Counted from the stretch's first letter, positions 22,666 through 61,762 are shown. The stretch: DNA of 64,000 bases from an uncultured bacterium (GCA_964576535.1 CAZNWB010000004.1:10597-74596); one strand, 5' to 3'. Translations and numbers: made by a program. Notes: generated by a model from the sequence alone, not told the origin.

Positions 22666-22811
22666 AACCGCCAAGGCGCCAAGAACGCCAAGGCCGGGCC
22701 TCATTGGGGGGAAGAAACGGAACTTCTGAAGGCCCCAGGAAGGTGTCTTCGGGTTTTCCCGTGGGGAGATCGGAAGTTCGTATTCTTGGCGACCTTGGCG
22801 TCTTGGCGGTT
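22666..22811. repeat. Periodic hairpin element (core CCAAG / CTTGG)
   Basis: Left arm CCGCCAAG GCGCCAAG AACGCCAAG. Right arm TTCTTGGC GACCTTGGC GTCTTGGC, ending at the rlmN stop. Confidence 0.7.
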
Positions 22812-23872
22812 CAACCCTTCTCCTTTTCGGTGCGGAGCATGCCGCAGGCGGCGGAGATGTCCCAGCCGCGGCTTTCCCGGATCGTGGCGGTGAGGCCGGC
22901 GTCGTGGAGGATCTGTTGGAAGCCCTCCACCCGTTTCCGAGGAGAGGGCTTATCCGGCAGGTCGGGGGCGGCGTTGAACGGAATCAGATTGATCTTGCAG
23001 CGAATCCCCCGCAGGAGGCCGACGAGACGCTTCGCATCTTGCTGTGAGTCGTTCACCCGGTCCAGCATCACGTACTCGAAGGTCAGCCGCCGCCGGTTCG
23101 GCAAGGGGTAGTCGCGGCAGGCCTTCAGCAATTCCGCAATGGGCCAGCGCCGATTGATGGGCATGATCTGGTCGCGTACCTCGTCGGTGGTCGCGCTGAG
23201 GGAGACCGCCAGGTTGACATTCAGGCCCGATGCCGCCAGCTTCTGGATGCCCGGCACGTGTCCCACCGTGGACAGGGTAATCCGGCGCGGGGAGAAGCTG
23301 GCGCCGCGCTCGTCGCCCAGGATCCGGAGGGCCCGCTCGACCTGCGGGAAGTTCAACAGGGGCTCCCCCATCCCCATGAGGACGATGTTGGAGATCCGCT
23401 CGCCTCGCTCCAAACGGTCTTGCAAGGCCAGCATCTGCCCTACGATCTCCCCGGCTCTCAGGTTCCGGCGGACGCCCATCAGACCTGTCAGGCAGAACCG
23501 GCACTCCAGCGGGCATCCCACCTGGGTCGAGATGCATGCGGTCAGGCGATCCTCATCGGGGATCAGGACACTTTCGATTTCCTCCTCATCGGCCAGCCGA
23601 AGGAGGTATTTGCGGGTCCCGTCCAGCGAGCGTTGGACCTGCGCCACCGCCGGCCGGCTCACCCGGGCGCGGCTGGCCAGTGCCGCACGCAGGGTCCGGG
23701 ACAGGGTGGTCATGACCTCAATGTCCAGGGCGCGCCGCGCGTGCACCCAGTGGAAGACCTGCCGTCCCCGGTATCGGGGCTGGCCCAGCTCTGCCAGCAG
23801 GGCATCGACCTCCGCGGGCAGCAGGCCCACGAGATCAATCCGGGAATCGCTCATCGTCCTCCCCCCAGGCAT
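22811..23872 (-). CDS. rlmN: 23S rRNA/tRNA (adenine-C2)-methyltransferase RlmN (radical SAM)
   Basis: YRGRQVFHWVH...STQVGCPLECRFCLTG...GMGEPLLN...CGML. Confidence 0.9.
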   Translation of the reverse strand: MPGGRTMSDSRIDLVGLLPAEVDALLAELGQPRYRGRQVFHWVHARRALDIEVMTTLSRTLRAALASRARVSRPAVAQVQRSLDGTRKYLLRLADEEEIESVLIPDEDRLTACISTQVGCPLECRFCLTGLMGVRRNLRAGEIVGQMLALQDRLERGERISNIVLMGMGEPLLNFPQVERALRILGDERGASFSPRRITLSTVGHVPGIQKLAASGLNVNLAVSLSATTDEVRDQIMPINRRWPIAELLKACRDYPLPNRRRLTFEYVMLDRVNDSQQDAKRLVGLLRGIRCKINLIPFNAAPDLPDKPSPRKRVEGFQQILHDAGLTATIRESRGWDISAACGMLRTEKEKG

Positions 23873-24489
23873 GCCCGGATCCCTCCCACCTCATCCACGG
23901 CCGCCGCAGGAGCCTTCAGGCCGAGAATCCCGTCCCGCAGGACCTCTCCCTCGTCGAAATATGGGATCCCCCACAGCAGAACGTCCTTGATCGCGCAGCG
24001 CATCTCCAGCCCGGTCACGTCCACCCGCCGATCAATGACGGTCAACAGGTGCGGCTCGACGTACGCCTTGGCCTCTTCCAGGCTGCGGGTGCATCCCACC
24101 ACGAGCGCAGGACTCGCGGGCTCCAGGCGGACTCGCTTCTCGGTATAGATCATCCCCGGATCCCCGAAGTAGGAGGCATTGTGCAGCTCGAACCCCGTAA
24201 CGTAGACCCACTCGACCGGTGGGATCTGTCGAGCCAGGGCCTGTCGTTCTGGATCCTCCCAGGAGGTCGCATACTGCACGCGGAAGGCCCACAGGGGAAG
24301 ATGAAGAACGGGTCGGTCCGACGAAAGAGCGGCCCGAGCGGTGGCGGCCTGGCGCCCCACGAATGCCTCCCCCACCACTTCATGTGGAACCTGGCAATCG
24401 TTGCACCAGAACACCACATCCTGCTGCAGACCGCGGAAGCCTCCGCCGCACCGCGGACACCTGAGGGCCAGGACCGTGGCGGCAGTCAT
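23851..24489 (-). CDS. Zinc-ribbon protein, paralogue family with the next two genes (no TM)
   Basis: CPRCGG...x12...CNDCQ, then HLPLWAFRV and LLWGIPYF motifs. Overlaps the rlmN start. Confidence 0.6.
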   Translation of the reverse strand: MTAATVLALRCPRCGGGFRGLQQDVVFWCNDCQVPHEVVGEAFVGRQAATARAALSSDRPVLHLPLWAFRVQYATSWEDPERQALARQIPPVEWVYVTGFELHNASYFGDPGMIYTEKRVRLEPASPALVVGCTRSLEEAKAYVEPHLLTVIDRRVDVTGLEMRCAIKDVLLWGIPYFDEGEVLRDGILGLKAPAAAVDEVGGIRACLGGGR

Positions 24490-24490
24490 G

Positions 24491-25612
24491 TCACCCTCTC
24501 CCCCGGGACCCCCGTCCAGGGCCCAGCAACCACTCAGCCAGCCTGGCGCTCAACTCACCAACTGGGCCGCCTCCCCAGTCCCCCTGCATGATAGGCTGGG
24601 TGGCCTCTTCGTCAAGCAGGACCTCGCCCCCCTGACGGAACACGCTCCACCCCACCCACGCCAGGAAGAGCGCCACCGCACCTCCGACCCCGAGTGCAAG
24701 CAAAGTCCCCAAAGCACCGGTGACCCAACCGGGCGCGTTGCCCAGGGCGAGGCCGACCCCAAAAGACTCCCGTGCCAGGCGGCCAAAGCAGAAGGCTGCG
24801 AGGGCCAACGCCCCCATAGCGATCGCAGCCGCCCGCCGGATCTCGACCGGAGCCCTGGCGCGAAGCACCATCCCCGTCACCCCATCCACCGTGATCTCGT
24901 ACGGACGGCCCGCATGCCGGTAGCGCGCATGCCATATCGGGTAGTACAAGACCTTCAATCGCTGTTCCACGACACCGGTGCGATCGCCTTTGACCTTGAT
25001 GCGCCGCTGGGAGTCACCGGCGAATCCGACTGGCGGCTTCGTCGGGACGAAAACGGTCGCACGGGTTTGCAGGACCACGAGGTCGAACGGTTCCAAGGGT
25101 GCTGGTGTCGGCCCACGCCGCATGCCCTCCAGCCGAATCCGGTCCACTCCAAGCTCGGACAGGTCGCAGCCCGGCCCGATCCGCACATACTCCTGCTGGA
25201 TGACCCGCGTGTCTTCCTTCTCCACGCGAGGCTCCAGCAACCAGCGCTGGAAGTCTCGGTTCTGCTCTCCATCCTCCGTCGGTGGCGGCGGGGGCTTGGC
25301 CCCTTCCTTGAGAAGGAAGGTTCCGAGACGGGCGCCGGTGAACTCGTAAAAGGGCACGTAACAGAGGGAGATCTCCTGGATGCGCCCGTGCGCGCGAAGG
25401 TTCTGCGGAAGCATCGGCCGGGTCAAGAACTTCTGGGCAGCACTCAGGGCTGCCTCCCGGCTGATGCCGAGGGTGATCGCGTATCGGGGCATCGCCCCTG
25501 GGATCAACGCCAGGCTTCCATTACCGCAGTACCGGCAGATCACTACCCGCTGCCCCTCTGCGAGGGAGAGCGTCCCGCCACACGAGGGACAACCGAGATG
25601 GGTCAAGGGCAT
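24491..25612 (-). CDS. Zinc-ribbon membrane protein (paralogue family)
   Basis: CPSCGG...x12...CRYCG; CYVPFYEF and VLYYPIWHARY motifs; 2-3 C-terminal TM helices. Confidence 0.65.
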   Translation of the reverse strand: MPLTHLGCPSCGGTLSLAEGQRVVICRYCGNGSLALIPGAMPRYAITLGISREAALSAAQKFLTRPMLPQNLRAHGRIQEISLCYVPFYEFTGARLGTFLLKEGAKPPPPPTEDGEQNRDFQRWLLEPRVEKEDTRVIQQEYVRIGPGCDLSELGVDRIRLEGMRRGPTPAPLEPFDLVVLQTRATVFVPTKPPVGFAGDSQRRIKVKGDRTGVVEQRLKVLYYPIWHARYRHAGRPYEITVDGVTGMVLRARAPVEIRRAAAIAMGALALAAFCFGRLARESFGVGLALGNAPGWVTGALGTLLALGVGGAVALFLAWVGWSVFRQGGEVLLDEEATQPIMQGDWGGGPVGELSARLAEWLLGPGRGSRGRG

Positions 25613-25647
25613 CGAGACCTCAGCCTATGGGGATGTTCCCGTCAAAA

Positions 25648-25734
25648 GCGTTCGGTGGTTCGGGAGTTCGGGAGTTCGGTTGTTCCCGGTCAGAGTGAAC
25701 CACCGAACAACCGAACCCTCGAACGACCGAACGG
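25648..25734. repeat. Period-8 hairpin element (core TTCGG / CCGAA)
   Basis: GCGTTCGG TGGTTCGG GAGTTCGG GAGTTCGG TTGTTCCC GGTCAGAG TGAACCAC CGAACAAC CGAACCCT CGAACGAC CGAACGG. Confidence 0.8.
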
Positions 25735-25748
25735 TCTGAATCTCTCCT

Positions 25749-26495
25749 TCACACCCCAGCCCTCCCCTCACCACCGACGACTGCCCAATACAGTGCCAGG
25801 GCGGTCAGGCCGACCGCTACCCCCGCGAGCCAAAACGGCGGGATCAGCACCGCTTCCAGGAACACGACCAAGAAGCCCGCGATCCCCGTCGTGAGCGTGA
25901 TGGCCTGGGGCGCGGACGATGCGCGGACCCCCGGAGGCATCCGTTCCGGATAGACGCGACCTGAGCAAGCCTCTACGTTGACGGCAAGCCGGCCGGTGCC
26001 GACAGTCACGTGGACCTCGTAGAACGGCACGTGGACGAGGTCTCCCGCGGCCGCCGAGGCGGCGCCCTCGCCGTAGACGCGGTTGCGGGCCGCGACCTCC
26101 GCTACGGTCGGCTCAACGAGACGGGCTGTCCCGACGATCGACGGGTCGAAGATCAGCTGCTCTGCATCGGGGGTCGGAAGATCGGTCCAGCGGGCCTCGA
26201 GCGCCGACCAGGCCGGAAAGAGTCGCGGGCGCCCCTGAGACGCGAAGCGCCAGAAGGGCTGGTATACGAGGTGGGGTGTGGAAATGTCAGATGGGGCGGG
26301 CAACCCCTGGGCGTCGCACCAAAGCCGTAGCAGAGGTGGGATGTCGGCCGGCCCATGGCGTGGACGGTAGAGCATATGCAGGCGGACACCTGTGAGATCC
26401 AGAACCAGGCTCGTCCCACAGAAGGGACAGCCGAGGAAACCGGTGGTCTCCTGGAGTTGGATCTCACCGCCGCATTGGGGGCAAGGAAGCTTCAC
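25749..26495 (-). CDS. Zinc-ribbon membrane protein (paralogue family)
   Basis: CPQCGG...x13...CPFCG; LVYQPFWRF and [11 protein letters not shown] motifs; two C-terminal TM helices. GTGA overlap with the SPFH gene. Confidence 0.65.
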
Positions 26496-27640: not shown

Positions 27641-27657
27641 GTCGCCTCCCGCCGTCC

Positions 27658-28209
27658 CTACAGGCTGCGCGCCACCCTGTCTCGATCTGCCACGCGGTGT
27701 TCGAAGTCCTGGAGCACCGCTTCGGCGGCGTCGAGCGCCTGCGGGAAGGCCGTGTCGTCGGTGGCAGCGTCTGCCAGGGTCAGGAGCGGCTGCCGCAGCC
27801 GGGGCGTCACCTCCAGCAGGTCCAGGTCGAAACGGTGCAGGGCCGCGAGCTCCGTCTCCCGGATCTTGTGGAGGTCGAAGACTCCGGCAAAGCCGTAGCG
27901 GGCATGCCGGACTTGATCCGCCAGGGTGCTCACCCGGCGAGCCACCCGGTCGAGGGTCGGCAGCCGATCCAGGCGGCCGGCCTCGGTCAAGCGACGCTCC
28001 GCTCCCTGGATGATGCGGGTGAGGTCCGTGAGCCGATCCGCCAGGTGCGCCCGCACTTGCTTGTCCGTCTCCCGCAGGCCTTCGCGGTCCTGGTAGCGTC
28101 CAATACCCGGGACAAGCCGGGCCAAACGCTCCAGCCGCTCTGCCCAGCCGGAGGCATCCGCTGATCCTGAAACTGGCGTGCCCAAGTTCGGGTCTCCCCG
28201 CAAATCCAC
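27658..28209 (-). CDS. Hypothetical helical protein, first gene of the SPFH operon (start uncertain)
   Basis: Arg/Leu/Asp-rich helical ORF. The listed N-terminus (to 28239) runs into the repeat at 28209-28289, so a later start is likely. Confidence 0.45.
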
Positions 28210-28289
28210 AATGCAAAACCAACAACTGACGACCGACAACTGGGTAATCGATGCCCGGTTTTCAGTTGTCCGTTGTCAGTTTTGCATTG
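28209..28289. repeat. Periodic hairpin element, 7-nt period (core ACAACTG / CAGTTGT)
   Basis: CAATGC AAAACCA ACAACTG ACGACCG ACAACTG, then loop, then CAGTTGT CCGTTGT CAGTTTT GCATTG. Confidence 0.7.
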
Positions 28290-28293
28290 GAGT

Positions 28294-29052: not shown

Positions 29053-29134
29053 AGGATCCTCCGCTCATTCCCGGGCGTCCTACGTTCCCGGAGAAGGACG
29101 CTGTCTCTGCCGTCTTGGAGTGTGCGGCCGTCGC

Positions 29135-30178: not shown

Positions 30179-30181
30179 CCG

Positions 30182-30769: not shown

Positions 30770-31435
30770 ATGTATCGCGCCATGCTCGATGCCCTGGGTC
30801 CCCAGGGTTGGTGGCCAGGCCGGACCCGCTTCGAGGTGATCGTCGGGGCCGTCTTGACCCAGAATATCTCCTGGGCAAACGTCGCCAAGGCCATCGAACG
30901 TCTCCGGAGGGCGCGCGCGCTGACCCCCAAAGCTTTGACGGCGCTCCCCCAGGACCGCCTGGCGGAACTGATCCGGTCGTCTGGGTATTATAACGTAAAG
31001 GCTGGACGCGTCAAACGCTTCCTCGGGTTCCTCCAGGGCCGATATGGATTGAATCTGTCGCGAATGTTTGCCCGCCGACCCTCGATCCTGCGAACAGAGC
31101 TGCTGGCCGTGCCAGGAATCGGGCCGGAGACTGCAGACTCGATTCTCCTCTACGCAGGCGGGGTGCCCATCTTCGTCGTGGATGCCTACACCCGGCGGAT
31201 CCTCACCCGCCATGGCCTGATCGCGGCGGATGCGACCTACGATGCAATGCAGACCCTCTTCATGGGCGCGCTCCCTCCGAACGCGCCGCGCTATAACGAG
31301 TACCACGCGCTCCTGGTCGCGGTGGGCAAAACCTATTGCCGCCCCATCCCCCGGTGCGACGCGTGCCCGTTGCGCCGCGACCTGGAGCGCCACTGCCCCG
31401 CCACCGCCCGCCGCTTCCTGGCTCTCTCTCCCTAA
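30770..31435 (+). CDS. Endonuclease III-related HhH-GPD protein with 4Fe-4S cluster loop
   Basis: ILTQNISWANV...LLAVPGIGPETADSILLYA...C-x6-C-x2-C near the C-terminus. Confidence 0.75.
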   Translation: MYRAMLDALGPQGWWPGRTRFEVIVGAVLTQNISWANVAKAIERLRRARALTPKALTALPQDRLAELIRSSGYYNVKAGRVKRFLGFLQGRYGLNLSRMFARRPSILRTELLAVPGIGPETADSILLYAGGVPIFVVDAYTRRILTRHGLIAADATYDAMQTLFMGALPPNAPRYNEYHALLVAVGKTYCRPIPRCDACPLRRDLERHCPATARRFLALSP

Positions 31436-31443: not shown

Positions 31444-31593
31444 CACCACCAAGGCACCAAGACACCAAAAAACTCCCCTCTTCACATTTTTTCGGGTGGG
31501 ATTACAGAAGGCGGCCGAGAACCTCACGAACGCCTTCTCGGTCGAAGTTCTTCGGGGAGTGCAGAGGGTGGTGCCTTGGTGTCTTGGTGGTGG
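31444..31593. repeat. Period-8 inverted-repeat element (core CACCA(A) / (T)TGGTG) with ~100-nt centre
   Basis: Left arm CACCACCA AGGCACCA AGACACCA. Right arm GGTGGTGC CTTGGTGT CTTGGTGG. The centre contains the hairpin CCGAGAA..TTCTCGG. Confidence 0.7.
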
Positions 31594-31602: not shown

Positions 31603-33462
31603 CTATTCCTTCTGCCGCGACCAGAGCAGGTTGTAGCCGTTGACGAAGGCGTTCACCGAGGCCACGATGATGTCCGGCGAGGTGCCCGTCGCCACGACCC
31701 GGTTGCTCTTCGTGTCCTTCATGATGATCGTGGTCTCCACGGAGGCGTCCGTCCCGGGAGAGTTGATCTCGACCTGGTAGTCCACCAGATCGAAGAACAG
31801 CTTCCCTCGCTTCTCGGCTGCGGTCTTGAGGGCGTTCACCACGGCATCCACGGGACCCACGCCGGACGCATTCGACGTCACGCGTTCCCCATCGAAGGTG
31901 ATCCAGACCTTGGCCTCGGCCTTCCCCTTGAGCGAGGTGGTGACCTGGAAGTCCTCCACCTGCAGGATGGGCCGGCGCTCCGAGCTCGCCTTGAGCACGT
32001 TCTCCACGATGTACTGGAGGTCGGCCTTGGTGATGCCCTTCCCCTTCCGGACGAAGTCGCCCACCAGCGCCGTGACCCGGTGGGCGTAATCGGCCGTCAG
32101 CTTCACGCCCAGTTCCTCACGCACCGTCTTGCTCACCGTCTGCTGCGAGGGAACCTGGCTGAACAGGCCGCGCCCGCCATCCTTGGCTGCGGCGGCGCGG
32201 ATCTCGTACAGTCGGAGCTTGAGGAACTTGTCCACCTCCGCGATCGTCGGCTCGATCGTGGCCGGGGAGGGCAGGACGCGCAGGGCGGCCTTGGGGTCCT
32301 TCAGCCCGTTGCCCGTGGCCAGGCAGACGACGACCTCGTCCGGGCGGATCCGGCCCGTGGTCAGGAGGGGTGCCAGGCTGGCGATGGGGATGGCCCCGGC
32401 CGGCTCGACGAAGATGCTCTCCAGGTGCGCCAGTTGCTGCTGCCCCTCTAGGATCTCGCCATCCGACATGATGACGCCGCAGCCGCCCGACTCCCGCATG
32501 GCGGCCAGCGCCTTCAGCCCGTCCACCGGGTCGCCGGCCGCCACCGCCGTGCAGACCGTGAACGGCTTCTCCACCGCGCTCACCTGGTCCGCCCCCTGCT
32601 GGAAGGCGGCCACGATGGGGGAGCAGCCATCCGGTTGGACGCCAATCATGCGGGGCAACCGCTCGGTGAATCCCAGCTCGTAGAATTCCTTGAAGCCCTT
32701 CCACAGGGCCGCCATGTTGGTCCCGCAGCCCATGGGCACGATAACGGCGGCCGGCGCCTGCCAATCCAGTTGCTCGATGATCTCGAAGGCCTGCGACTTC
32801 TGCCCCTCGACCCGGAAGGCGTAATCCCCCGCCAGATAGAAGCCGTGGCGGTCGCTGACCTCCTCCGCCAGGCGGGCGGCATCGGTGTACGTCCCTCGGA
32901 CCTGGATGAGCCGAGCGCCGTAGGACAAGGCCTGGGCCATCTTGCCGATGGCGGTGCCCTCTGGGACCAGGACGTAACACGGCAGGCCGGCAATGGACGC
33001 ATAGGCGGCCACGGAGGCGGCCATGTTCCCGGTCGAGGCCACGCAGACCGCCTTGGCCCCCTGCTCCTTGGCCTTGGTGAGCTCCACCAGGCTCCCGCGG
33101 TCCTTGAAGACCCCGGTCGGGTTTGCGCCCTCATTCTTGATGTACAGGTGGCGAAGGGCCATCCGCTCCGCCAGTCGGGTGCAGCGGTACAGGGGCGTGC
33201 CGCCCTCGTCCAGCGAGACGACGAGGTCAAGGTTCAGGAGCGGGTAGAAATCGAGATACTTCAGGGCCTTGACGGGGGAGGTGCGTAGCGAATACCGATT
33301 CAGGCGGGAGCGGATGTAATCGTAATCGTAGCGGACGTCGAGCGGCCGGCGGCAGACGGGGCAGCGGGTGCTGCTCTCCGTCTCCTTGACCTGCTTGCCG
33401 CAGGAGATGCAGTGCAGCTCGTAGAACTGCGCGCCGTTCTTGCGGTTTCGACTGCGAGCCAT
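31603..33462 (-). CDS. thrC: Threonine synthase (PLP, N-terminal zinc ribbon) fused to a LeuA-type C-terminal regulatory (LeuA_dimer-like) domain
   Basis: CISCG..CPVC; PLP-lysine motif NPTGVFKDRG. The C-terminal ~190 aa (VEDFQVTT...GVGPVDAVVNALK...DYQVEINSPGTDASVETTI...) resemble the IPMS/citramalate synthase allosteric domain. Confidence 0.75.
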   Translation of the reverse strand: MARSRNRKNGAQFYELHCISCGKQVKETESSTRCPVCRRPLDVRYDYDYIRSRLNRYSLRTSPVKALKYLDFYPLLNLDLVVSLDEGGTPLYRCTRLAERMALRHLYIKNEGANPTGVFKDRGSLVELTKAKEQGAKAVCVASTGNMAASVAAYASIAGLPCYVLVPEGTAIGKMAQALSYGARLIQVRGTYTDAARLAEEVSDRHGFYLAGDYAFRVEGQKSQAFEIIEQLDWQAPAAVIVPMGCGTNMAALWKGFKEFYELGFTERLPRMIGVQPDGCSPIVAAFQQGADQVSAVEKPFTVCTAVAAGDPVDGLKALAAMRESGGCGVIMSDGEILEGQQQLAHLESIFVEPAGAIPIASLAPLLTTGRIRPDEVVVCLATGNGLKDPKAALRVLPSPATIEPTIAEVDKFLKLRLYEIRAAAAKDGGRGLFSQVPSQQTVSKTVREELGVKLTADYAHRVTALVGDFVRKGKGITKADLQYIVENVLKASSERRPILQVEDFQVTTSLKGKAEAKVWITFDGERVTSNASGVGPVDAVVNALKTAAEKRGKLFFDLVDYQVEINSPGTDASVETTIIMKDTKSNRVVATGTSPDIIVASVNAFVNGYNLLWSRQKE

Positions 33463-53028: not shown

Positions 53029-53055
53029 AATCCTTCCTCCGTCCCAATACCTTCC

Positions 53056-54827: not shown

Positions 54828-54844
54828 CGGAGTAGAAACCCTCT

Positions 54845-54960
54845 AATCGGGTGATTGGGTGATTGGGCACGTGGGCGATTGGGTGATTGGGGGAACAGGC
54901 AACCTGGCAACCGGTAAGCCCAGTTGCCAAGTTGCCCAGTTACCGAACTGCCGAACTGCC
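54845..54960. repeat. Period-8 element filling the whole permease/SBP spacer (tandem GATTGGGx units plus GGCAA/TTGCC hairpin)
   Basis: AATCGGGT GATTGGGT GATTGGGC ACGTGGGC GATTGGGT GATTGGGG GAACAGGC AACCTGGC AACCGGTA AGCCCAGT TGCCAAGT TGCCCAGT TACCGAAC TGCCGAAC TGCC. Confidence 0.85.
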
Positions 54961-54963
54961 TCC

Positions 54964-56238: not shown

Positions 56239-56476
56239 CGCAGCCCCCTTTCTCGGTGGGACGTGATCGTTGGCATAACAGGAGAAGATGCCATCCTTCC
56301 ACGACGGAGGATCGTTCCCGTTGAACCGCTGGATCATTGCACTTAAGGGACCCCTGTGTCAATCCGCATCGCGCGACATTCTGGGACCCGAGGATGCGCG
56401 CGCTCGGCGCGAAATCCGACCAGTGGCCCCCCCTCGGGTCAACCGGTGCGATGCAGTGGAGAGCGACGGGGAAGGC

Positions 56477-57790
56477 TTACAGGGCCTGGAGGGCGGGGTC
56501 GGCCCAGATCCCCGATCCGGGAGTGAAGGACTCGAGGGTGTGGCGGAGTGCCTGGAGGAACCGGCCGGCCACGGCCCCGTCCACGACGCGATGGTCGTAG
56601 GAAAGGCAAAGATACCCCATCCAGCGGATGGCAATGGTGTCCTCGCCGTCCCGGGTGACCACCACCGGTCGTTTCTGGATGATGCCCACCCCCAGGATTC
56701 CGACCTCGGGCTGATTCAGGATGGGTGTCCCGATGAGGTTCCCGTCGGCCCCGAAGTTGTTCACCGTGAAGGTGCTGCCGGTGAGCTCCTCGGGCAAGAG
56801 TCTCCCCTCCTGGGCGCGGCGGACCATCTCCCCGATAGCGACAGCGATATCCGTCAGGGAGCGGGAGCCGGGATTGCGTAGGACGGGGACGACCAACCCA
56901 TCCTCCAGGGCGATGGCTATCCCCAAGTGGATGGCCTTCCGGACCCTGATGCCCTCGTCGGTCCACCGAGCGTTCACAGTCGGAAGCTCGCGCAGGACAT
57001 GGGCGGTGGCCTTGACGATGAAAGGAAGGAAGGTGAGGCTGATCCCCTTCGCCTGGCGGAACGCGGCCTTCTTTTCCTCACGGAAGCGAGCGATGGCGGT
57101 AAAGTCGGCCTCGGCAATTGACGTGACATGGGGAGCGGTTTGCTTGCTGCGGACCATGTGTTCGGCGATGGTCCGCCGCATTTTCGTGAGGGGGATGAGT
57201 TCTTCGCCCTCGCCGATCCCGACAGGCTCGACGCGCCGCTCGGGTGCGGCTCTTCGAGGGGCTTCGGGCGCGACAGGTTTTGCCCCCCTGGCTTGGGCGA
57301 ACGCTTCGACATCCTGCCGGGTGATCCGTCCTCCTTCCCCGGTACCCGGCACCTCCTCCAGGTTGATCCCAAGCTCTTCCGCCAGCTTCCGCACGGCCGG
57401 AGAATAAAATCTTCCCTCTCGGGCACCCATTGCATTTCGCCCGAGCTGCGGGCGGCAATGGGTCCCGGCGCTTGGCGCTTGGCGCTCAGCGGGTGGCGGC
57501 GGAACAGTGATGGGGGCCTCCGCCCCGAGGTCAATTCCGGTGCCGGAGGCGAAGCCTTCGCTGATGATCGCCAGGGTCGCTCCGACGAGGGCGACCTCGC
57601 CCGCCTTCACCAGGATCTGGGACAGGACGCCGGCGGCGGGCGCAGGGATCTCGGCGTCCACCTTTTCGGTCGAGATGGCCAGGATGGCCTCGTCCTTCTG
57701 GACGCGGTCTCCCTCCTTCTTCAACCACTCGATCACAGTCCCCTCGGCGACGCTCTCGCCGAGCTGGGGCATGACAATGGGGATGCTCAT
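56477..57790 (-). CDS. 2-oxoacid dehydrogenase E2 (dihydrolipoamide acyltransferase)
   Basis: Lipoyl domain (MPQLGESVAEGTV...ISTEKVDAEIPAP), peripheral subunit-binding domain (SPAVRKLAEELGI) and catalytic LSYDHRVVDG. Confidence 0.9.
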   Translation of the reverse strand: MSIPIVMPQLGESVAEGTVIEWLKKEGDRVQKDEAILAISTEKVDAEIPAPAAGVLSQILVKAGEVALVGATLAIISEGFASGTGIDLGAEAPITVPPPPAERQAPSAGTHCRPQLGRNAMGAREGRFYSPAVRKLAEELGINLEEVPGTGEGGRITRQDVEAFAQARGAKPVAPEAPRRAAPERRVEPVGIGEGEELIPLTKMRRTIAEHMVRSKQTAPHVTSIAEADFTAIARFREEKKAAFRQAKGISLTFLPFIVKATAHVLRELPTVNARWTDEGIRVRKAIHLGIAIALEDGLVVPVLRNPGSRSLTDIAVAIGEMVRRAQEGRLLPEELTGSTFTVNNFGADGNLIGTPILNQPEVGILGVGIIQKRPVVVTRDGEDTIAIRWMGYLCLSYDHRVVDGAVAGRFLQALRHTLESFTPGSGIWADPALQAL

Positions 57791-57797
57791 GACTCAC

Positions 57798-57890
57798 AAC
57801 CGTTCGATTGTTTCCGCCTCTGGCGGATTCGGTCGTTCGGTGCTTCCCCGTGAACAACCGAACACTCGAACAACCGAACTCCCGAACGCC
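57798..57890. repeat. Period-8 hairpin element (core TTCGG / CCGAA) between E1-beta and E2
   Basis: ...GGATTCGG TCGTTCGG TGCTTCCC CGTGAACA ACCGAACA CTCGAACA ACCGAACT CCCGAACG. Confidence 0.8.
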
Positions 57891-57899
57891 CTTGCCTAA

Positions 57900-58874
57900 T
57901 CAGAATGCAGCCAGCCGTTCGATGGCCGAGGCAATCTTATCCGCGTTGGGAAGAAAGGCCTCTTCCAACGGAGCGGTGAAGGGCACCGGAGTGTCCCGCC
58001 CTGTCACCCGCAGGATCGGGCCATCCAGCCGGTCGAAGGCCGCCTCGGCGATGGTGGCCGCCACCTCGGCCCCGACCCCCCCGGTCCGGGTCGCCTCGTG
58101 GACAATCACGACCTTCCCCGTCTTCCGGGCGGTTGCCACGATCGCCTCCCGGTCCAGGGGGAGAAGGGTTCTCAGGTCCAGGATCTCCACCGAGATCCCT
58201 TTCGGGCTCAGCCGGTTCGCCGCCTCGAAGGCCTGGTGCAGCATGGCCCCGTAGGTGATGACGCTGACGTCGGTCCCTTCCCGTTTCACCTCGGCCTTGC
58301 CGATCGGAACGATGAAATCCTCGTCGGGAACCTTTCCCTTGATCCGGCGGTAGAGGTACTTGTGCTCGAGGTAAATGACCGGGTCCGGATCCCGGATAGC
58401 CGCTTTGAGCAACCCCTTGGCGTCATAGGGGGTGGCGGGGGCCAGCACCTTCAATCCCGGGACGTGGACAAACCAGGCCTCGGGGTTCTGGGAATGGAAC
58501 GGCCCGCCGTGAACGTTGCCCCCCGATGGCGCGCGGATCACGAGGGGAACGCTGGTTCCCGTTCGATAGTGGAACTTGGCCGCCATGTTCACGATCTGGT
58601 CGAAGGCACAGGCGATGAAATCGGAGAACTGCATCTCCACCACGGGCCGGAGTCCCATGAGCGCCGCGCCCACCGCCGAGCCGACGATGGCCGATTCGCA
58701 GATTGGGGTGTCGATCACCCGATCCGGGCCGAACTTGTCCAGAAAGCCCAGGGTGATCTTGAAGGCGCCCCCGTAGACACCGATGTCCTCGCCGATGAGA
58801 TACACCTGCTCGTCGCGCTCCATTTCCTCCCAGAGCGCCTGACGAATCGCCTCGATGTACGTTATTTCTGCCAT
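57900..58874 (-). CDS. 2-oxoacid dehydrogenase E1 component beta subunit
   Basis: MAEITYIEAIRQALWEEMERDE...VIDTPICE...; transketolase-like pyrimidine-binding and C-terminal domains. Confidence 0.9.
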   Translation of the reverse strand: MAEITYIEAIRQALWEEMERDEQVYLIGEDIGVYGGAFKITLGFLDKFGPDRVIDTPICESAIVGSAVGAALMGLRPVVEMQFSDFIACAFDQIVNMAAKFHYRTGTSVPLVIRAPSGGNVHGGPFHSQNPEAWFVHVPGLKVLAPATPYDAKGLLKAAIRDPDPVIYLEHKYLYRRIKGKVPDEDFIVPIGKAEVKREGTDVSVITYGAMLHQAFEAANRLSPKGISVEILDLRTLLPLDREAIVATARKTGKVVIVHEATRTGGVGAEVAATIAEAAFDRLDGPILRVTGRDTPVPFTAPLEEAFLPNADKIASAIERLAAF

Positions 58875-58879
58875 GAAAA

Positions 58880-58962
58880 CCGTTCGACCGTTCGGTGGTT
58901 CGGTCGTTCGGGCGTTCCGTTTTGAACCATCGAACACCCGAACGATCGAACTACCGAACGCC
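58880..58962. repeat. Period-8 hairpin element (core TTCGG / CCGAA) between E1-alpha and E1-beta
   Basis: CCGTTCGA CCGTTCGG TGGTTCGG TCGTTCGG GCGTTCCG TTTTGAAC CATCGAAC ACCCGAAC GATCGAAC TACCGAAC. Confidence 0.85.
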
Positions 58963-58963
58963 T

Positions 58964-60079
58964 CTAGGTTGAGTAGACCCCCTGCTCCACGTCTTTTCCC
59001 TCGGGGAAGGGGCTGGCCTCGGCCCAGGCCACGGCCGCCTCCAGCTCGCCGGCGATCCGCTTCGCGACCCGGGCGACTCCTGCCTCGTCCAGGGTCCCCT
59101 GCTCGCGCAGGCGGGTCTCAAACCGCTGGATCGGGTCCTTGCCGCGCCATTCTTCGAGCAACTCCCGGGGCACGTAAGAGGCGTCATCGTGCTCCGAGTG
59201 GCCGCGCATGCGCATGGTCTTGCATTCGATCAACGTTGGGCCCTCTCCCCGCCGGGCACGCGCCCCCGCCTCCCGGGCGGCCCGGTAGACGTCCAGCACG
59301 TCATTGCCGTCCACGATGACCCCCGGGATGCCATACCCTGCCGCACGGACAGCCACGTCCGGGACCCGTGCCTGCCGCGAGAGAGGCGTTGAGTAGGCGA
59401 ACTGATTGTTGTTGCACACGAACACCACAGGGACCTGGAGCACCGCGGCCAGGTTGATCCCCTCGTGGAAGTCGCCCCGGCTGGCGGCACCCTCGCCAAA
59501 CCAGGTCATGGCAATGCGCCCGGTGCCCCGGCGCTTCAAGGCCAGGGCAACTCCGGTCGCCACGGGGATGCCGTCAGCCATGGGGCTGATGAAGGCCACG
59601 TCGCCTCGCTGGACGTCCCCGAAGTGCACATTGCCTTCCCGGCCCCGCGAGGGGCCCCCGATCCGCCCGAGGTACTGGGCGAGAATCTCCCGGACCTGCA
59701 TACCGCGCAAGAGGTGCGCCCCCATGTCCCGGTGGGAGGGGACGATGACGTCGCCGGGCTCCAGGGCGTACGCGGCTCCCACGGACACAGCCTCTTGCCC
59801 GGTGGAAAGGTAGACCCCGCCAAAGATCTTTCCTTGCCGGTACAGGATGCCGATGCGTTCTTCCAGGGATCGGGTGAGGCGGAGGTGGTAGTAGATGTCG
59901 AGGAGTTGATCGCGGGTCAGACCCGAATCGTCCACGCGAATGGTCTCCCCTGTCTGCGGGATTGGGTGCGCCGTTTTCCCAACCGGTCCTTCGTTCCTCC
60001 CATCCGCGTCCAGCCGCGCGCCATCAGTCGGGGGAATCGCTTCGGGGCTCGGTGCGTGATTTCGTCTGAAATCACGCAC
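58964..60079 (-). CDS. 2-oxoacid dehydrogenase E1 component alpha subunit (TPP-dependent)
   Basis: TPP motif region GEGAASRGDFHEGINLAAV...VFVCNNNQFA. Confidence 0.9.
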   Translation of the reverse strand: MRDFRRNHAPSPEAIPPTDGARLDADGRNEGPVGKTAHPIPQTGETIRVDDSGLTRDQLLDIYYHLRLTRSLEERIGILYRQGKIFGGVYLSTGQEAVSVGAAYALEPGDVIVPSHRDMGAHLLRGMQVREILAQYLGRIGGPSRGREGNVHFGDVQRGDVAFISPMADGIPVATGVALALKRRGTGRIAMTWFGEGAASRGDFHEGINLAAVLQVPVVFVCNNNQFAYSTPLSRQARVPDVAVRAAGYGIPGVIVDGNDVLDVYRAAREAGARARRGEGPTLIECKTMRMRGHSEHDDASYVPRELLEEWRGKDPIQRFETRLREQGTLDEAGVARVAKRIAGELEAAVAWAEASPFPEGKDVEQGVYST

Positions 60080-61078
60080 TCAGCCCCCGATGGCGGACAT
60101 GGACCGAGCCGGCTTGACGAAATCCGGCTGGTTGATCTTGTGGCCGGCCTCCTTCTTCCAGACGGCGGCGAGGATGAAGTCGGCGATCTCCTCGTCGGTG
60201 GCCCCGGATCGCAGGAGCCCCTTGAGGTCGTGCTCCTGGATCGAGAACAGGCAGGTGCGGAGCTGGCCGTCGGCCGTGATGCGGATGCGGTTGCAACTGT
60301 CGCAGAAAGGTTCCGTGACCGAGGCGATGATCCCGATGGAACCCCGCCCGTCGGCGAATCGGTACACCGTGGCCGGCTCGGTCCCGTGACCGTTGGCGGG
60401 CGCCACGGGGAAGACCTCGTGGATACGAGCCAGGATCTCGGCCCCGGGGACCACCGTCTTCATGTTCCATTCGCCCTGGGCGTCCAGGGGCATGAACTCG
60501 ATGAAACGGACCTGGTAGTCCTGATCCCGCCCCAGGCGGGCGAAGTCCGCCACCTCATCCTCGTTGTAGCCCCGCATCACCACGCAGTTCAGCTTGATGG
60601 GGTGCAGCCCCGCCTCTCGGGCGACCCGCAGCCCCTCCAGGATCTTGGAGACCAGCTGGCCATCCCGCCGGGCCATGCGCTCGAACCGCTCGGGTTGCAG
60701 GGAGTCCAGGCTGACGTTGATGCGCTTGAGACCGGCGTCCGCCAGCCGTCGGGCCTTCTCGGTGAGGAAGAAGCCATTGGTGGTCATGGAAAGGTCGAGA
60801 TCCGGCTGCAGGCGCGTCAGGCCCTCGATCAGGACATCGATGTCCTGGCGCATCAGGGGCTCGCCCCCCGTCAGGCGGACCGTCCGGATCCCCAGGTGGA
60901 TGAAGACCCGCACGAGACACAGGATCTCCTCGTAGCTCAGGATCTCCCGCTTGGGAAGCCAGGTGAGCCCCTCGGCCGGCATGCAGTAGACGCACCGGAA
61001 GTTGCACCGGTCGGTGAGGGAGATCCGGAGATCGTCAACCACCCGGCCGAAACTGTCTTTCAAGCCCGACACAAGCAC
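60080..61078 (-). CDS. moaA: GTP 3',8-cyclase MoaA (radical SAM); start uncertain
   Basis: LRISLTDRCNFRCVYCMP...; C-terminal CDSCNRIRITADGQLRTCLF. The listed TTG start at 61102 lies inside the repeat at 61087-61166, so GTG 61078 is used. Confidence 0.85.
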   Translation of the reverse strand: MLVSGLKDSFGRVVDDLRISLTDRCNFRCVYCMPAEGLTWLPKREILSYEEILCLVRVFIHLGIRTVRLTGGEPLMRQDIDVLIEGLTRLQPDLDLSMTTNGFFLTEKARRLADAGLKRINVSLDSLQPERFERMARRDGQLVSKILEGLRVAREAGLHPIKLNCVVMRGYNEDEVADFARLGRDQDYQVRFIEFMPLDAQGEWNMKTVVPGAEILARIHEVFPVAPANGHGTEPATVYRFADGRGSIGIIASVTEPFCDSCNRIRITADGQLRTCLFSIQEHDLKGLLRSGATDEEIADFILAAVWKKEAGHKINQPDFVKPARSMSAIGG

Positions 61079-61086
61079 AAATCCCT

Positions 61087-61166
61087 CTTGGCAATCTGGC
61101 AATCAGGCAACTCGGCAATCTGGTGTTCCAAGTTGCCAGGTTGCCGAATTGCCCAGTTGCCTGCTC
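61087..61166. repeat. Period-8 hairpin element (core GGCAA / TTGCC) between nuoI and moaA
   Basis: CTTGGCAA TCTGGCAA TCAGGCAA CTCGGCAA TCTGGTGT TCCAAGTT GCCAGGTT GCCGAATT GCCCAGTT GCCTGCTC. Confidence 0.85.
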
Positions 61167-61655
61167 CTACTTCTTGGCAGGCGCCGCCTCGACCAATTCC
61201 GGGGTCATGGGCGTCGGATAGAACTTGTCCGCGTGCAGCGCGGTCTGATCATACACCAACCCCATGCGGTTGAAGGCGCCGATCTCGAAGTTCCCGGTCC
61301 ACATGGTGATGGCGTCGAAGGGGCACACCTCCACGCACAAATTGCAGTACATGCACAGGTTGTGATCAATGACAAACTCGACTGGGTGGCGCTCTTTCCC
61401 CTTCCCGGCGCCGACGATGGCAATGCAACGAGTCGGGCAGATCTTGGCGCAGGCGTCGCAGGCCGTGCACTTCAGCTTCCCCGTGGCCAGTTCGATGGTC
61501 AGGAGGTGGCGGTTCAGGGAGCGCAACGGCAGCCGCCGCTTCTCCTTCGGGTACTGCACGGTGATGGCCGGGGTGAACAGGTGACGCAACGTCACCCCCA
61601 TGGATACCAGGATGCTCAGGAGTCCCAGCCAGACGTCCCGCACATACGCGATCAT
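61167..61655 (-). CDS. nuoI: NADH:quinone oxidoreductase subunit I-like 2x[4Fe-4S] protein
   Basis: Start at MIAYVRDVW. CTACDACAKICP and CMYCNLCVEVCP clusters. Confidence 0.85.
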   Translation of the reverse strand: MIAYVRDVWLGLLSILVSMGVTLRHLFTPAITVQYPKEKRRLPLRSLNRHLLTIELATGKLKCTACDACAKICPTRCIAIVGAGKGKERHPVEFVIDHNLCMYCNLCVEVCPFDAITMWTGNFEIGAFNRMGLVYDQTALHADKFYPTPMTPELVEAAPAKK

Positions 61656-61670
61656 GCTTGCCTCATCCGA

Positions 61671-61762
61671 GGTTGGCAACCAGTCAATCCGGCGATTGGG
61701 CAATCGGGGCGAGGCGACCGCACTTCCGAATTGCCTGATTACCAAGTTGCCTGATTGCCAGC
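61671..61762. repeat. Period-8 hairpin element (GGCA / TTGC cores) between nuoB and nuoI
   Basis: GGTTGGCA ACCAGTCA ATCCGGCG ATTGGGCA ATCGGGGC GAGGCGAC CGCACTTC CGAATTGC CTGATTAC CAAGTTGC CTGATTGC. Confidence 0.8.

Follow-up and report, generated by a model that had tools for sequence, protein, structure and literature searches.

The ten sites

The window analysed here is a 64-kb stretch of DNA (64,000 nt) from a Methylomirabilota (NC10) bacterium. Ten of its gaps hold inverted repeats of 80-150 nt whose arms are tandem 8-nt units (7-nt in one), and all ten elements start 0-10 nt past a stop codon. A first-pass annotation had located all ten, and each is present where it was placed. I numbers denote inverted repeats of the window.

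1454..1547, plus strand: GAGGTTCC/GGAACC-type hairpin, units 8 and 11 nt apart (TRF periods 8/11/22; I12/I13)
22666..22811, minus strand: CGCCAAG/CTTGGCG arms, 3 units each, ~92-nt non-periodic interior (TRF period 8 in both arms; I5, 89% complementary)
25648..25734, minus strand: GTTCGGNN/NNCCGAAC hairpin, 5 units per arm (I1, 37-nt arms, 84% complementary)
28209..28289, minus strand: period-7 hairpin, core ACAACTG/CAGTTGT (TRF period 7; I2)
31444..31593, no strand given: CACCAAG/CTTGGTG arms, 73-101-nt interior (I4/I6)
54845..54960, minus strand: composite hairpin, GATTGGGT x6 plus GGCAA x2 against TTGCC/CTGCC units (TRF periods 8/16)
57798..57890, minus strand: GTTCGGNN hairpin in the E1-beta/E2 gap (TRF periods 8/16; orthologous spacers)
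58880..58962, minus strand: GTTCGGNN hairpin in the E1-alpha/E1-beta gap (I3, 90% complementary; orthologous spacers)
61087..61166, minus strand: NNNGGCAA/TTGCCNNN hairpin in the 4Fe-4S (NuoI-like)/moaA gap (TRF period 8 in both arms; orthologous spacers)
61671..61762, minus strand: degenerate GGCAA/TTGCC hairpin in the NuoB-like/4Fe-4S gap (fold; orthologous spacers)

The element at 1454 lies directly 3' of a DnaB/KaiC-like ATPase gene (stop codon 1450-1452; Pfam of the flanking ORFs), and 1445-1560 folds at -58.6 kcal/mol (z -5.6). At 22666 the element (-70.5 kcal/mol, z -6.4) overlaps the rlmN stop codon (22811-22813); tRNA-Met (22531-22607) has a promoter-like site, and the element is located upstream of it. 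L116 keeps both this tRNA promoter-like sequence and the right arm of the element (L numbers designate sequences other than the window). The 25648 element (-54 to -56 kcal/mol) separates a co-directional gene pair downstream of an SPFH (Band 7) gene, and the orthologous gap holds a GTTCGG hairpin in L116 and an ordinary GC hairpin in L117. The 28209 element (-42.1 kcal/mol, z -6.2) follows a TPR-gene stop codon by 4 nt and lies upstream of the SPFH gene. At 31444 the element (-71.7 kcal/mol, z -6.7) sits in a convergent gap, about 8-10 nt from either stop codon (31433-31435, 31603-31605); it is kept in L115, interior included, with a nested mini-hairpin in the L115 interior, is degraded in L116 and is absent in L117. 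Both 22666 and 31444 sit at operon or transcription-unit ends.

The 54845 element lies between the solute-binding-protein (SBP) gene and the first permease gene and folds at -51.6 (sense) and -59.6 (antisense) kcal/mol. The orthologous gap carries GGCAA-type hairpins in L002, L008 and L009; in L010 it measures 8 nt and has no element. The 57798 element (-43.2 kcal/mol, z -3.1) contains a nested mini-hairpin, TCCGCCAGAGGCGGA, at 57813-57827 and ends 7 nt ahead of the E2 start codon, which has no Shine-Dalgarno sequence. The entire gap, from 1 nt past the stop to 5 nt short of the start codon, is occupied at 58880 (-47.7 kcal/mol sense, -50 antisense; z -5.2 and -8). The 61087 element has its first base at the stop codon (-42 to -44 kcal/mol, z about -6), and the 61671 element folds at -44.8 kcal/mol (z -2.6), with GGCAA units retained at the orthologous gap in L003, L006, L008 and L010.

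Abundance and anatomy

A lag scan (24-nt window, at least 80% lag identity, 50 dinucleotide-preserving shuffles as control) recovered nine lag-8 periodic segments in the window, whereas the shuffles averaged 0.38 (maximum 2), bearing out an excess over shuffled controls; lags other than 8 were near expectation. By TRF, both arms hold period-8 arrays at most sites, with period 7 at 28258-28281. Ranked by strength, the window's top inverted repeats (I1-I7) are these periodic hairpins. Each of the ten elements folds as a single long hairpin, with energies of -42 to -72 kcal/mol and z scores of -2.6 to -8. The assembly artefact considered in the first-pass annotation is ruled out by an independent Logan assembly, whose spacers are identical to those of the window, and by the same kind of element in relatives' assemblies from JGI, ENA and NCBI. 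Many short intergenic gaps of this NC10/Methylomirabilota genome are taken up by such periodic hairpins, a real and abundant repeat class. The word families here are GTTCGGNN, NNNGGCAA, CNCCAAG, ACAACTG and GAGGTTCC.

The earlier description of spacers written almost entirely in 8-nt units needs restriction at three sites: in the 22666 and 31444 elements periodicity is confined to the outermost ~27 nt of each arm, a non-periodic interior of 73-101 nt separating the arms, and at 1454 the spacing is a mix of 8 and 11 nt. Core columns are Watson-Crick in 92% of cases, variable columns in 50% at the in-register alignment and in 39% after a one-unit shift, so it is roughly right that the variable positions are mostly not complementary; the arms pair about equally well after a one-unit slide. 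Instead of a ladder of ~5-bp helices, the predicted stems are of 5-10 bp with mostly 1x1 mismatches between them, not 2-3-nt loops. That the register carries on through the loop has statistical support: innermost-core gaps of 122 GTTCGG-type hairpins measure 6-7, 14-15, 22-23 or 30-31 nt, and 80 of the 122 fall in two of the eight register phases (p=5e-21). Arm polarity is fixed (23:0), GTTC is near-invariant across units (95-100%), position 7 avoids A, and the 5' arm has more G than C in 51 of 67 unit families. Slippage followed by inversion is not supported as the main process, given that the variable dinucleotides of adjacent units (likeness 0.33) are no more alike than those of unrelated arrays (0.29). 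The 16-nt super-period at three sites (TRF) does reveal some two-unit block duplication.

Position and strand

Among 134 stop-adjacent cases in 956 kb of related DNA, about 100 start 0-22 nt past the stop. Within operons the elements usually take up the entire gap to the next start codon, ending 5-17 nt before it. Their reported location mostly between co-directional genes applies to nine of ten in the window and 94 of 122 in the wider set; in the latter, 20 gaps are convergent and eight divergent, compared with 512/98/94 adjacent gene pairs in the same order, and divergent gaps are depleted of elements (p=0.023). The moaA/E1a and E2/SBP gaps have no periodic element and hold an ordinary hairpin plus a promoter-like site, TTGACA-18-TGnAATGAT, which places the periodic hairpins inside transcription units.

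Strand asymmetry is modest. G:U pairs are commoner on the sense strand (47 versus 26 elements, p=0.019), and sense RNA folds better in 50 elements versus 38 (MFE sign test p=0.24, Wilcoxon 0.08); a test on G/A core variants gave p=0.16. At the four window sites folded on both strands, antisense was slightly better each time.

Conservation and distribution

Relatives have a hairpin with the same core word at orthologous gaps. The same word is kept at the E1a/E1b, E1b/E2, nuoB/Fer4, Fer4/moaA and 25648 gaps despite third codon positions being 60-66% identical. Spacer identity at these five gaps is 43-65%, and changes in unit number and at the 2-3 variable positions accumulate faster than at third codon positions. 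In deeper relatives the gaps have other words, ordinary GC hairpins or nothing. L011 and L117 have no periodic elements at all; L117 carries ordinary GC-rich hairpins at the same gaps, and L011 has a strong Shine-Dalgarno sequence, GAGGAGAGG, ahead of E1-beta, where hairpin-bearing genomes have none. As these two and the L010 SBP/permease gap demonstrate, the elements are dispensable.

In L003-L005 one arm has been supplanted by an unrelated 7-nt-period hairpin. In L006 and L010 both spacers flanking E1-beta hold an exact insert of 56 or 50 nt, inverted, and the insert differs by genome. The evidence for local copying rests mainly on these two striking cases, a general test being weak (p=0.04, n=10 pairs). 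Only 4/276, 0/55 and 0/78 within-genome pairs have a common 24-mer, in agreement with the earlier view that this is not one MITE copied around. The cores, taken earlier to be locus-specific, prove family-specific: identical words turn up at many different loci, in orthologous gaps and in other genomes.

In a scan of 185,579 species genomes the GTTCGGNN hairpin occurred more than 100 times, about three quarters of them in Methylomirabilota; GTTCGG is also found in Bacteroidota, Acidobacteriota, Kiritimatiellae and Armatimonadota. Nine different words occur within 8 kb of L046, and at least five in the window. Some families are conserved over the whole sequence (the 9-nt-period elements of L039/L086 and the GGGAATAGGCGGTTCGG elements of an 'Uhrbacteria' MAG). 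Periodic hairpins were not found on viral contigs, phages or plasmids, no transposase adjoins any element at the loci compared, and no target-site duplications were seen at the element ends inspected.

Relation to known repeats

An Rfam search of the elements gave no match, and they are, as first thought, not REP/BIME, ERIC or CRISPR. A named precedent, which the first-pass annotation did not have, nevertheless exists in the paired tandem octa/heptanucleotide repeats of Geobacter metallireducens (PMC2700814) and in the cyanobacterial STRR heptamers (PMC2670836). Our elements, a population of short-period tandem-repeat hairpins in a single lineage, may well be of the same kind as these two, an assignment that we hold tentatively. 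The Geobacter repeats were listed by Aklujkar et al. 2009 as 'predicted global regulator binding sites' classes 1-3, with no mechanism given (PMC2700814). They too have 3-5 tandem 7-9-nt units per strand in inverted pairs about 75-115 nt across, a conserved core with variable positions in each unit, several word classes per genome and sites within operons, e.g. in the proB-proA gap. They differ in words (GTTGCTYN, TCTCCGTS, MTYCTGA), in phylum, in density (about 53 pairs per genome; here 10 per 64 kb), in having been read as IHF/HU sites on DNA and in the insertion sequences at a fixed distance from class 1 sites, of which none were seen here.

Cyanobacterial STRR share the short-period tandem units in non-coding DNA, and their inverted arrays form an intercistronic hairpin; for the heptamer hairpin of the hupS-hupL gap, higher transcript stability or translational coupling has been proposed (PMC2670836). 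The Nostoc TTGTCAG array csR1.1, with 44 genomic copies (PMC2408588), is a reverse-complement rotation of the ACAACTG unit at 28209. Unlike our elements, STRR have period 7 only, many arrays are single, and the hosts are cyanobacteria; three period-7 arrays inspected in the first 50 kb of pCC7120alpha had no inverted partner. The TAACTGA heptamer arrays of marine Beggiatoaceae, Cyanobacteria and Bacteroidetes (MacGregor 2015, PMC4679880) are likewise intergenic, tandem and phylogenetically patchy, and abut start codons where ribosome-binding sites are rare. They comprise 169 direct sets and one indirect, nearly all without inverted partner, are dominated by one word, and lie upstream of starts, in contrast to the position directly after stops seen here. 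Long simple sequence repeats of 5-11 nt were treated by Mrazek et al. 2007, as summarised in PMC4679880.

REP/BIME and REPINs of Enterobacteria and Pseudomonas are also extragenic hairpins at 3' ends and in operons, kept at orthologous sites, and REP/BIME likewise occupy a solute-binding-protein/permease gap. REP elements protect upstream mRNA from exonucleases (malE-malF). However, a REP unit is a 20-40-nt imperfect palindrome, conserved whole and linked to the RAYT transposase; here just a 4-6-nt word every 7-8 nt is conserved, and copies have no long identical stretch.

Discussion

Intrinsic terminators or attenuators independent of a U tract are an explanation that we consider very improbable. 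Strong stems directly past stop codons, the 20 elements in convergent gaps and the position of 22666 and 31444 would suit them. Against them, the sense strand shows no T enrichment past the stem (1.93 T in 8 nt versus 2.24 in the antisense equivalent), a consensus terminator scan flagged no periodic hairpin as a whole element, and E1-beta and E2 start 5-7 nt past the hairpin, where a promoter would not fit. Efficient termination there would silence essential partners of one enzyme complex. Missing U tracts and missing promoter space together disfavour a canonical terminator, and the short distance to the next start with no U tract past the stem requires read-through. Also unlikely, though less so, are non-autonomous transposons (MITE- or REPIN-like), with arms as stacked subterminal transposase-binding sites mobilised in trans. 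The multi-copy word families of fixed polarity, the terminal inverted arms around unique interiors at 22666 and 31444, the wholly conserved L039/L086 and 'Uhrbacteria' elements and the IS elements near Geobacter class 1 sites (PMC2700814) speak for this; most copies, however, have no 24-mer in common with any other in the genome, inheritance at orthologous gaps is stable, and duplications, adjoining transposases and copies on mobile replicons were missing from the material searched.

If each 7-8-nt unit, e.g. GUUCGGNN, were one protein site and the hairpin secondary, be it dsDNA sites (IHF/HU) or ssRNA/ssDNA sites (cold-shock, S1, CsrA-like), the fixed polarity and a per-unit conservation exceeding pairing needs (GTTC, position 7) would follow. 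A limited vocabulary recurs across phyla, with GTTCGG in four other groups and ACAACTG near Nostoc TTGTCAG and Beggiatoaceae TAACTGA; such sites have been proposed for Geobacter (IHF/HU, PMC2700814) and for TAACTGA arrays (PMC4679880), and Nostoc heptamer arrays altered reporter regulation (bioRxiv 10.1101/2022.06.06.494920). Yet the many words coexisting in one genome would need many proteins, no candidate protein was found, 8-bp spacing is out of step with the DNA helical repeat, and the nearly constant inverted pairing with 6-7-nt apex and fixed phase answers a hairpin need rather than that of a site array. We regard this explanation as improbable. Better placed, but still on the doubtful side, are selfish or neutral dispersed repeats that spread and stay uniform as hairpins exchange sequence by ectopic gene conversion or template switching, and that pile up in the least harmful places, 3' and intercistronic spacers, any RNA effect being a by-product. 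Close relatives differing in presence, up to complete absence in L011 and L117, turnover outpacing third codon positions, the arm swap in L003-L005 and the exact inverted copies in neighbouring spacers all fit; family descent directly yields polarity and shared words, and unrelated variable positions in neighbouring units are expected with many donors. Against it stand the persistence of a hairpin at the same gaps where synonymous sites are near saturation, the ordinary hairpin of L117 in the same place, the sense-strand G:U excess and the tight placement 0-20 nt from stop codons, each of which suggests a need for a hairpin at these positions.

The explanation that we put forward, with reservation, is that the elements are a REP-like dispersed family of periodic hairpins, transcribed in operons and renewed by inter-element copying, with a probable role as barriers at RNA 3' ends or in translational coupling. 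Such copying, by gene conversion or template switching and not by transposition of whole copies, would keep the word families uniform. Pairing alone does not account for the near-invariant GTTC and the fixed polarity, which indicate either sequence-specific recognition or pure descent within families. With no space for a promoter, the elements would be carried in polycistronic mRNA, where they are predicted to form hairpins of -42 to -72 kcal/mol with a mismatch about every 8 nt. By analogy to REP in E. coli malE-malF, these hairpins would block exonucleases that degrade 3'-to-5' and determine how stable upstream cistrons are in relative terms. Coupling cannot apply at the operon-end elements 22666 and 31444. 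Within operons the 5' arm has the stop codon at its foot and the 3' arm the start codon. A ribosome that terminates there would melt the stem base and so expose the next start, coupling the translation of adjacent genes, some of which have no Shine-Dalgarno sequence.

Periodic hairpins in the gaps between genes

All ten periodic spacers claimed by the first-pass annotation are present, each as an inverted repeat with arms of short tandem units, and the observation of periodic hairpins is confirmed. Lag-8 segments (24-nt window, at least 80% lag identity) numbered nine, whereas 50 dinucleotide-preserving shuffles gave 0.38 on average and never more than 2. All of them lie in gaps between ORFs, and lag 8 was the most prominent of the lags 3-16 scanned in the window. 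Tandem Repeats Finder reported arrays of period 8 at most sites, in one arm or in both; the period was 7 at 28258-28281 and a mixture of 8 and 11 at 1454-1515. The unit length is 8 nt at nine of the ten sites and 7 nt solely at 28209-28289. The description of the spacers as built almost entirely of tandem units held for the outer three units per arm of the elements starting at 22666 and 31444, but not for their 73-101-nt interior, which is non-periodic. The top seven inverted repeats of the entire window are periodic elements, and all ten elements are predicted to fold as a single long hairpin (-42 to -72 kcal/mol, z -2.6 to -8) with stems of 5-10 bp interrupted mainly by single mismatches. 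The exact E1-beta protein was found on a Logan contig only; since this independent contig carries spacers identical to those of the window, the elements are not an artefact of a single assembly.

ORFs and Pfam matches on the minus strand give the gene order NuoB-like, 4Fe-4S protein (Fer4), MoaA, E1-alpha (E1a), E1-beta (E1b), E2, solute-binding protein (SBP) and two permeases. The features around the NuoB-like gene are:

61656-61680, minus strand: small hairpin CCUCGGAUGAGG, directly after the periodic hairpin 61671-61762; predicted to pair the Shine-Dalgarno-like GAGG before the 4Fe-4S gene start (61655)
61767-62321, minus strand: NuoB-like gene, from ORF structure and Pfam matches
62344-62425: 35-nt tandem repeat, 2.4 copies, with GCTGACC words and small GC hairpins, in the upstream gap of the NuoB-like gene
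~62424-62600, minus strand: C-terminal remnant of an isocitrate/isopropylmalate dehydrogenase, full length (336-343 aa) at the same place in the related loci L006 and L010 and cut to 53 aa in L003

Within this gene run, periodic hairpins are found in the gaps nuoB/Fer4, Fer4/moaA, E1a/E1b, E1b/E2 and SBP/permease. Between moaA and E1a there is instead a perfect 20-bp hairpin without periodicity (60044-60087) that overlaps the moaA stop codon, is conserved in L003 and is likely a conventional terminator at an operon boundary. In the E2/SBP gap a promoter-like TTGACA-18-TGnAATGAT (56362-56333, minus strand) is located upstream of the SBP gene. Together, this hairpin and this promoter-like site place the periodic elements inside transcription units whose boundaries look conventional.

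Every element in the window starts 0-10 nt after a stop codon. Those of the E1 operon end 5-7 nt before the next start codon, without a Shine-Dalgarno sequence. Element 31444 separates a convergent gene pair, at ~8-10 nt from each stop, and element 22666 overlaps the rlmN stop upstream of a promoter-like site of tRNA-Met (CTTGACA...TAGTAT, ~22608-22660) that is conserved in the related locus L116. Short-period arrays are not limited to spacers, since the coding sequence of the E2 inter-domain linker contains tandem heptamers (AAGCGCC x3, window 57467-57486, minus strand), as it does in relatives (GAGCCGA x4; L008 11374-11425, L006 11418-11460).

The stretches 1-3800 and 11293-22607 carry a DnaB/KaiC-like ATPase gene, an HTH_17 (excisionase-like) gene and then ORFs without Pfam match; farther along follow five or six tRNA genes (Pro, Pro, Arg, Met, Met) and a PIN-domain gene. 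This region, which contains the 1454 hairpin, may be an integrated element region.

Anatomy and polarity of the arms

A purpose-built detector run on 956 kb found 141 periodic hairpins, 131 of them distinct (87 of period 8, 39 of period 7 and five of period 9), with dozens of words. Across the hairpin set, the gaps are co-directional in 94 cases, convergent in 20 and divergent in eight, compared to 512, 98 and 94 adjacent gene pairs, respectively; divergent gaps are thus depleted (p=0.023). Of 134 stop-adjacent cases, about 100 begin 0-22 nt past the stop. The sense strand of this set shows no T run after the stem.

Core columns are Watson-Crick paired at 92% in register and at 93% with one arm slid by one unit; the values for variable columns are 50% and 39%. 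Given the similar core pairing when slid, pairing of the arms is possible in several registers, and a simple inverted duplication does not describe them. One of the unit words is GUUCGGNN; the unit logo obtained from protein-anchored spacers, symmetric between the arms, reads G (.95), T (.97), T (1.0), C (.97), G (.85), G/A (.62/.26), B, N. The apex has a fixed phase with a 6-7-nt loop, and the innermost units are the most degenerate.

Among hairpins outside the search-pattern selection, GTTCGG-first and CCGAAC-first hairpins occur at 13:0 and GGCAA-first and TTGCC-first hairpins at 10:0; the binomial p of 2e-7 overstates independence, as some hairpins are orthologues. The 5' arm is richer in G than in C in 51 of 67 unit families, and in 27 versus 13 without the GTTCGG-like families. 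G:U pairs are richer on the sense strand in 47 elements and on the antisense strand in 26 (p=0.019), and the sense strand folds better in 50 versus 38 (Wilcoxon p=0.08). A test of the G/A core variant went in the same direction as the sense bias and was not significant.

The reverse pattern CCGAAC...GTTCGG gave at least 122 matches in metagenomes. Among the matches listed, 114 belong to a single conserved locus that is unrelated, CCGAACATCCGAACA-N~30-GTTCGGATGTTCGG, three arise where two forward hairpins adjoin and five resemble true reverse hairpins. This highly conserved locus, which reads CCGAACATCCGAACAC - ~30 nt - GTGTTCGGATGTTCGG and has conserved flanks on both sides, is found in soil metagenome contigs (L119-L198 and others, e.g. 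L167 1754-1814). Each side carries two GTTCGG units spaced by 8 nt, but the locus is not a periodic hairpin; it could be an operator or a pair of abutted mobile-element ends.

The same gaps in relatives

Syntenic loci were compared from 98% to 71% E1-beta identity, and in a second set from 95% to 67% MltG identity. E1-beta homologues at ~90% identity carry the names NC10, Methylomirabilales or Methylomirabilis. A periodic hairpin persists in the corresponding gaps of relatives, and its word is unchanged: both E1 gaps and the 25648 gap carry GTTCGG, and the gaps of nuoB/Fer4/moaA and SBP/permease carry GGCAA. Between the window and L002, third codon positions of E1-beta are 95% and the E1b/E2 spacer 85% identical. 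The E1a/E1b spacer of L003, which belongs to the same lineage as L002, is only 59% identical to that of the window, because its 5' arm has been swapped for a hairpin of 7-nt-period CGAATNT units. Word and hairpin persist in L006, L008 and L010, where third positions are 60-66% and spacers 43-65% identical to the window.

At 71% E1-beta identity (L012) the units are mostly 7 nt long and the words differ. In L010 the SBP/permease gap is 8 nt long and contains no element; L011 (GC 0.57) has no elements and a strong Shine-Dalgarno sequence upstream of E1-beta. In L117, from a 5.6-Mb genome, ordinary GC-rich hairpins stand in the same gaps.

Sequence exchange between elements

In L006 an exact 56-nt stretch, including a GC-rich palindrome nested in the array, is common to both spacers flanking E1-beta in inverted orientation (9888-9943 and 11008-11063). 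L010 has a different exact 50-nt stretch in the same arrangement (approximately 9923-9972 and 10991-11040). Both inserts are absent elsewhere in the DNA examined. They are direct evidence that neighbouring elements exchange sequence. Since each hairpin closely resembles its own reverse complement, copying between two of them is possible in either orientation. Such copying between elements offers a way to keep the word uniform while the variable positions are shuffled. A general copying test was weakly positive (median same-locus longest common substring 15.5 nt vs 14 nt; n=10, p=0.04). Slippage, suggested earlier as the generator of the octamers, is not supported as a recent process by the comparison of adjacent units, the variable dinucleotide of neighbouring units being alike at 0.33 compared to 0.29 for units of other arrays. 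Transposition of whole elements is not supported either; few elements per genome have a 24-mer in common.

GC-rich mini-hairpins are nested in some hairpin arms, where they replace a unit, and look like a second, smaller inserted element. The 15-mer TCCGCCAGAGGCGGA recurs in five loci (window 57813-57827, L027 5919, L041 5827, L082 221, L110 749), and further mini-hairpins lie at L003 1824 and 1890 and within L115 8565-8743. Types of the form CCCCGCC...GGCGGGG sit in GGCAA arms.

Distribution

The exact pattern GTTCGGNNGTTCGG-N8-38-CCGAACNNCCGAAC was scanned against one genome per species (185,579 species) and matched at least 101 stretches. Among the 80 matches listed, 59 come from Methylomirabilota/NC10 MAGs, one of which has at least 18 loci; others include Haliscomenobacter, Acidobacteriota, Kiritimatiellae, Chthonomonadales, Coatesbacteria and a MAG labelled Uhrbacteria, whose match belongs to a different repeat, conserved over its whole sequence. 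A contig of a MAG labelled Candidatus Uhrbacteria (L046, CAWIHE010000004, 578-6934) has nine periodic hairpins in 8 kb, each with a different 7-9-nt unit. The contigs of the Candidatus Uhrbacteria MAG (1.0 Mb and 250 kb, GC ~0.6) are odd for a CPR label. Element density in the window is about one per 6 kb. The Rokubacteria genome paper reports 8-17% non-coding DNA and does not mention repeats.

BLAST of two elements against plasmids and phages gave no match, to which the low-complexity filter may contribute. Viral contigs held zero forward-polarity matches and one reverse-polarity match, and thus no sign of a phage vector.

Relation to known repeats

The first-pass annotation did not match the elements to a named repeat family. 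Precedents for paired arrays do exist (PMC2700814; PMC2670836). Geobacter metallireducens has paired arrays of three kinds, read as IHF/HU sites: four tandem copies of the octanucleotide GTTGCTYN (24 pairs), arrays of TCTCCGTS[Y] (21 pairs) and five copies of the heptanucleotide MTYCTGA (eight pairs). The partners lie on opposite strands at a distance of 75-115 nt, and one pair separates proB from proA (PMC2700814). All ten sites share this layout of three to five tandem 7-9-nt units per strand, inverted within ~100 nt, as in Gmet_I301-I308, but the Geobacter words are not those of the window (GTTCGG, GGCAA, CCAAG, GGTTCC, ACAACTG). Cyanobacterial STRR heptamers are reported to form a hairpin between hupS and hupL in four species, for which a role in transcript stability or in translational coupling was proposed (PMC2670836). 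The window elements are likewise multi-copy non-coding arrays able to form intercistronic hairpins, although nine of the ten sites lack the heptanucleotide unit. The Nostoc TTGTCAG arrays (44 copies; PMC2408588) have a unit that is a reverse-complement rotation of the window's ACAACTG unit. On the Nostoc plasmid pCC7120alpha we found period-7 arrays, those inspected being unpaired. In Nostoc, heptamer arrays located upstream of recF and recO had an effect on the regulation of a reporter (bioRxiv 10.1101/2022.06.06.494920). TAACTGA arrays of Beggiatoaceae, Cyanobacteria and Bacteroidetes directly adjoin start codons at which ribosome-binding sites are uncommon; the proteins suggested to bind them are S1, Csp and CsrA (PMC4679880). 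The elements also agree with the 5-11-nt class of long simple sequence repeats (longer than chance, mainly non-coding) of Mrazek 2007, as summarised in PMC4679880. They differ from the Geobacter pairs and from the STRR, Nostoc and TAACTGA arrays in period 8, words, consistent hairpin pairing and density.

The other repeat and RNA families compared do not fit. In Rfam 15 only tRNAs reach the gathering threshold; at permissive thresholds the best hits are animal miRNA-precursor models, chance look-alikes such as mir-341 (33.8 bits vs a gathering score of 90). REP/BIME/REPIN units are 20-40-nt imperfect palindromes conserved as a whole, whereas a common 24-mer was found here in 4/276, 0/55 and 0/78 within-genome pairs of elements, and in 0/10 in the window. 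The gene tables of the loci examined contain no RAYT (IS200/IS605-like) transposase gene of the kind that REP repeats flank. For a MITE one would expect terminal inverted repeats, target-site duplications and families alike over the whole element; here most copies are unlike outside the word, and no flank is duplicated at the ends inspected. The units are 7-8 nt long and contiguous in inverted arms, in contrast to the 24-48-nt direct repeats of CRISPR with their unique spacers of similar length. Intrinsic terminators, with a G+C-rich stem followed by a U tract, are rejected as a reading; there is no T enrichment past the stem and a consensus scan finds no element as such. Integron attC core sites (R''/R' RYYYAAC ... 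GTTRRRY) bound promoterless mobile cassettes; GTTCGG has a C at the fourth position, and the elements are flanked by the E1a-E1b-E2 operon, which is syntenic and conserved in relatives.

Discussion

Our analysis shows a repeat class that is real, abundant and vertically persistent. Its members follow stop codons, both within operons and at their ends, and have a fixed polarity and register-tolerant arms. In them a known kind of repeat, one that lacks a mechanistic explanation, appears in a new form and in a new phylum. To our knowledge, neither a function nor a generating mechanism has been established for any of the 7-9-nt tandem repeats.

The interpretation offered by the first-pass annotation is partly supported. 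We infer that the elements are transcribed and folded within the mRNA. By analogy to proposals made for REP and STRR, the hairpins would then block 3' exonucleases and couple termination to reinitiation; the malE-malF case of REP elements is the basis of the exonuclease comparison. More speculatively, the periodic mismatches might keep the long stems from being RNase III substrates. The strongest rival holds that the elements are selfish or neutral word arrays maintained by copying; as with REP, one reading does not exclude the other. Pairing alone fails to explain the near-invariant GTTC and the fixed polarity, and a sequence-specific factor therefore stays in play. A far-reaching and rather improbable extension of the functional reading is a general device, not debris, used across phyla: a register-tolerant stem between stop and start would replace the Shine-Dalgarno sequence by termination-reinitiation coupling and escape RNase III and exonucleases, its word and polarity being read by a dedicated factor that renews the arrays. 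If true, this would give a function to the 35-year-old STRR/LSSR puzzle, with the Methylomirabilota octamers as its densest known example.

Reports of 7-9-nt tandem repeats go back to 1990 in cyanobacteria, with Geobacter, Beggiatoaceae and Bacteroidetes added later, and in an uncultured phylum this architecture dominates the spacers between cistrons. The window provides clean comparative material, as one gap can be traced across relatives, and any mechanism is constrained by the tight placement behind stops, the fixed arm polarity and the pairing that tolerates a shift by one unit. On the practical side, the elements cause breaks in assemblies and mislead the calling of gene starts in MAGs of Methylomirabilota. 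If they are selfish, they would be a repeat class that spreads by copying words and not whole elements. If they tune mRNA stability or couple translation, they would form a widespread, unannotated layer of operon regulation.
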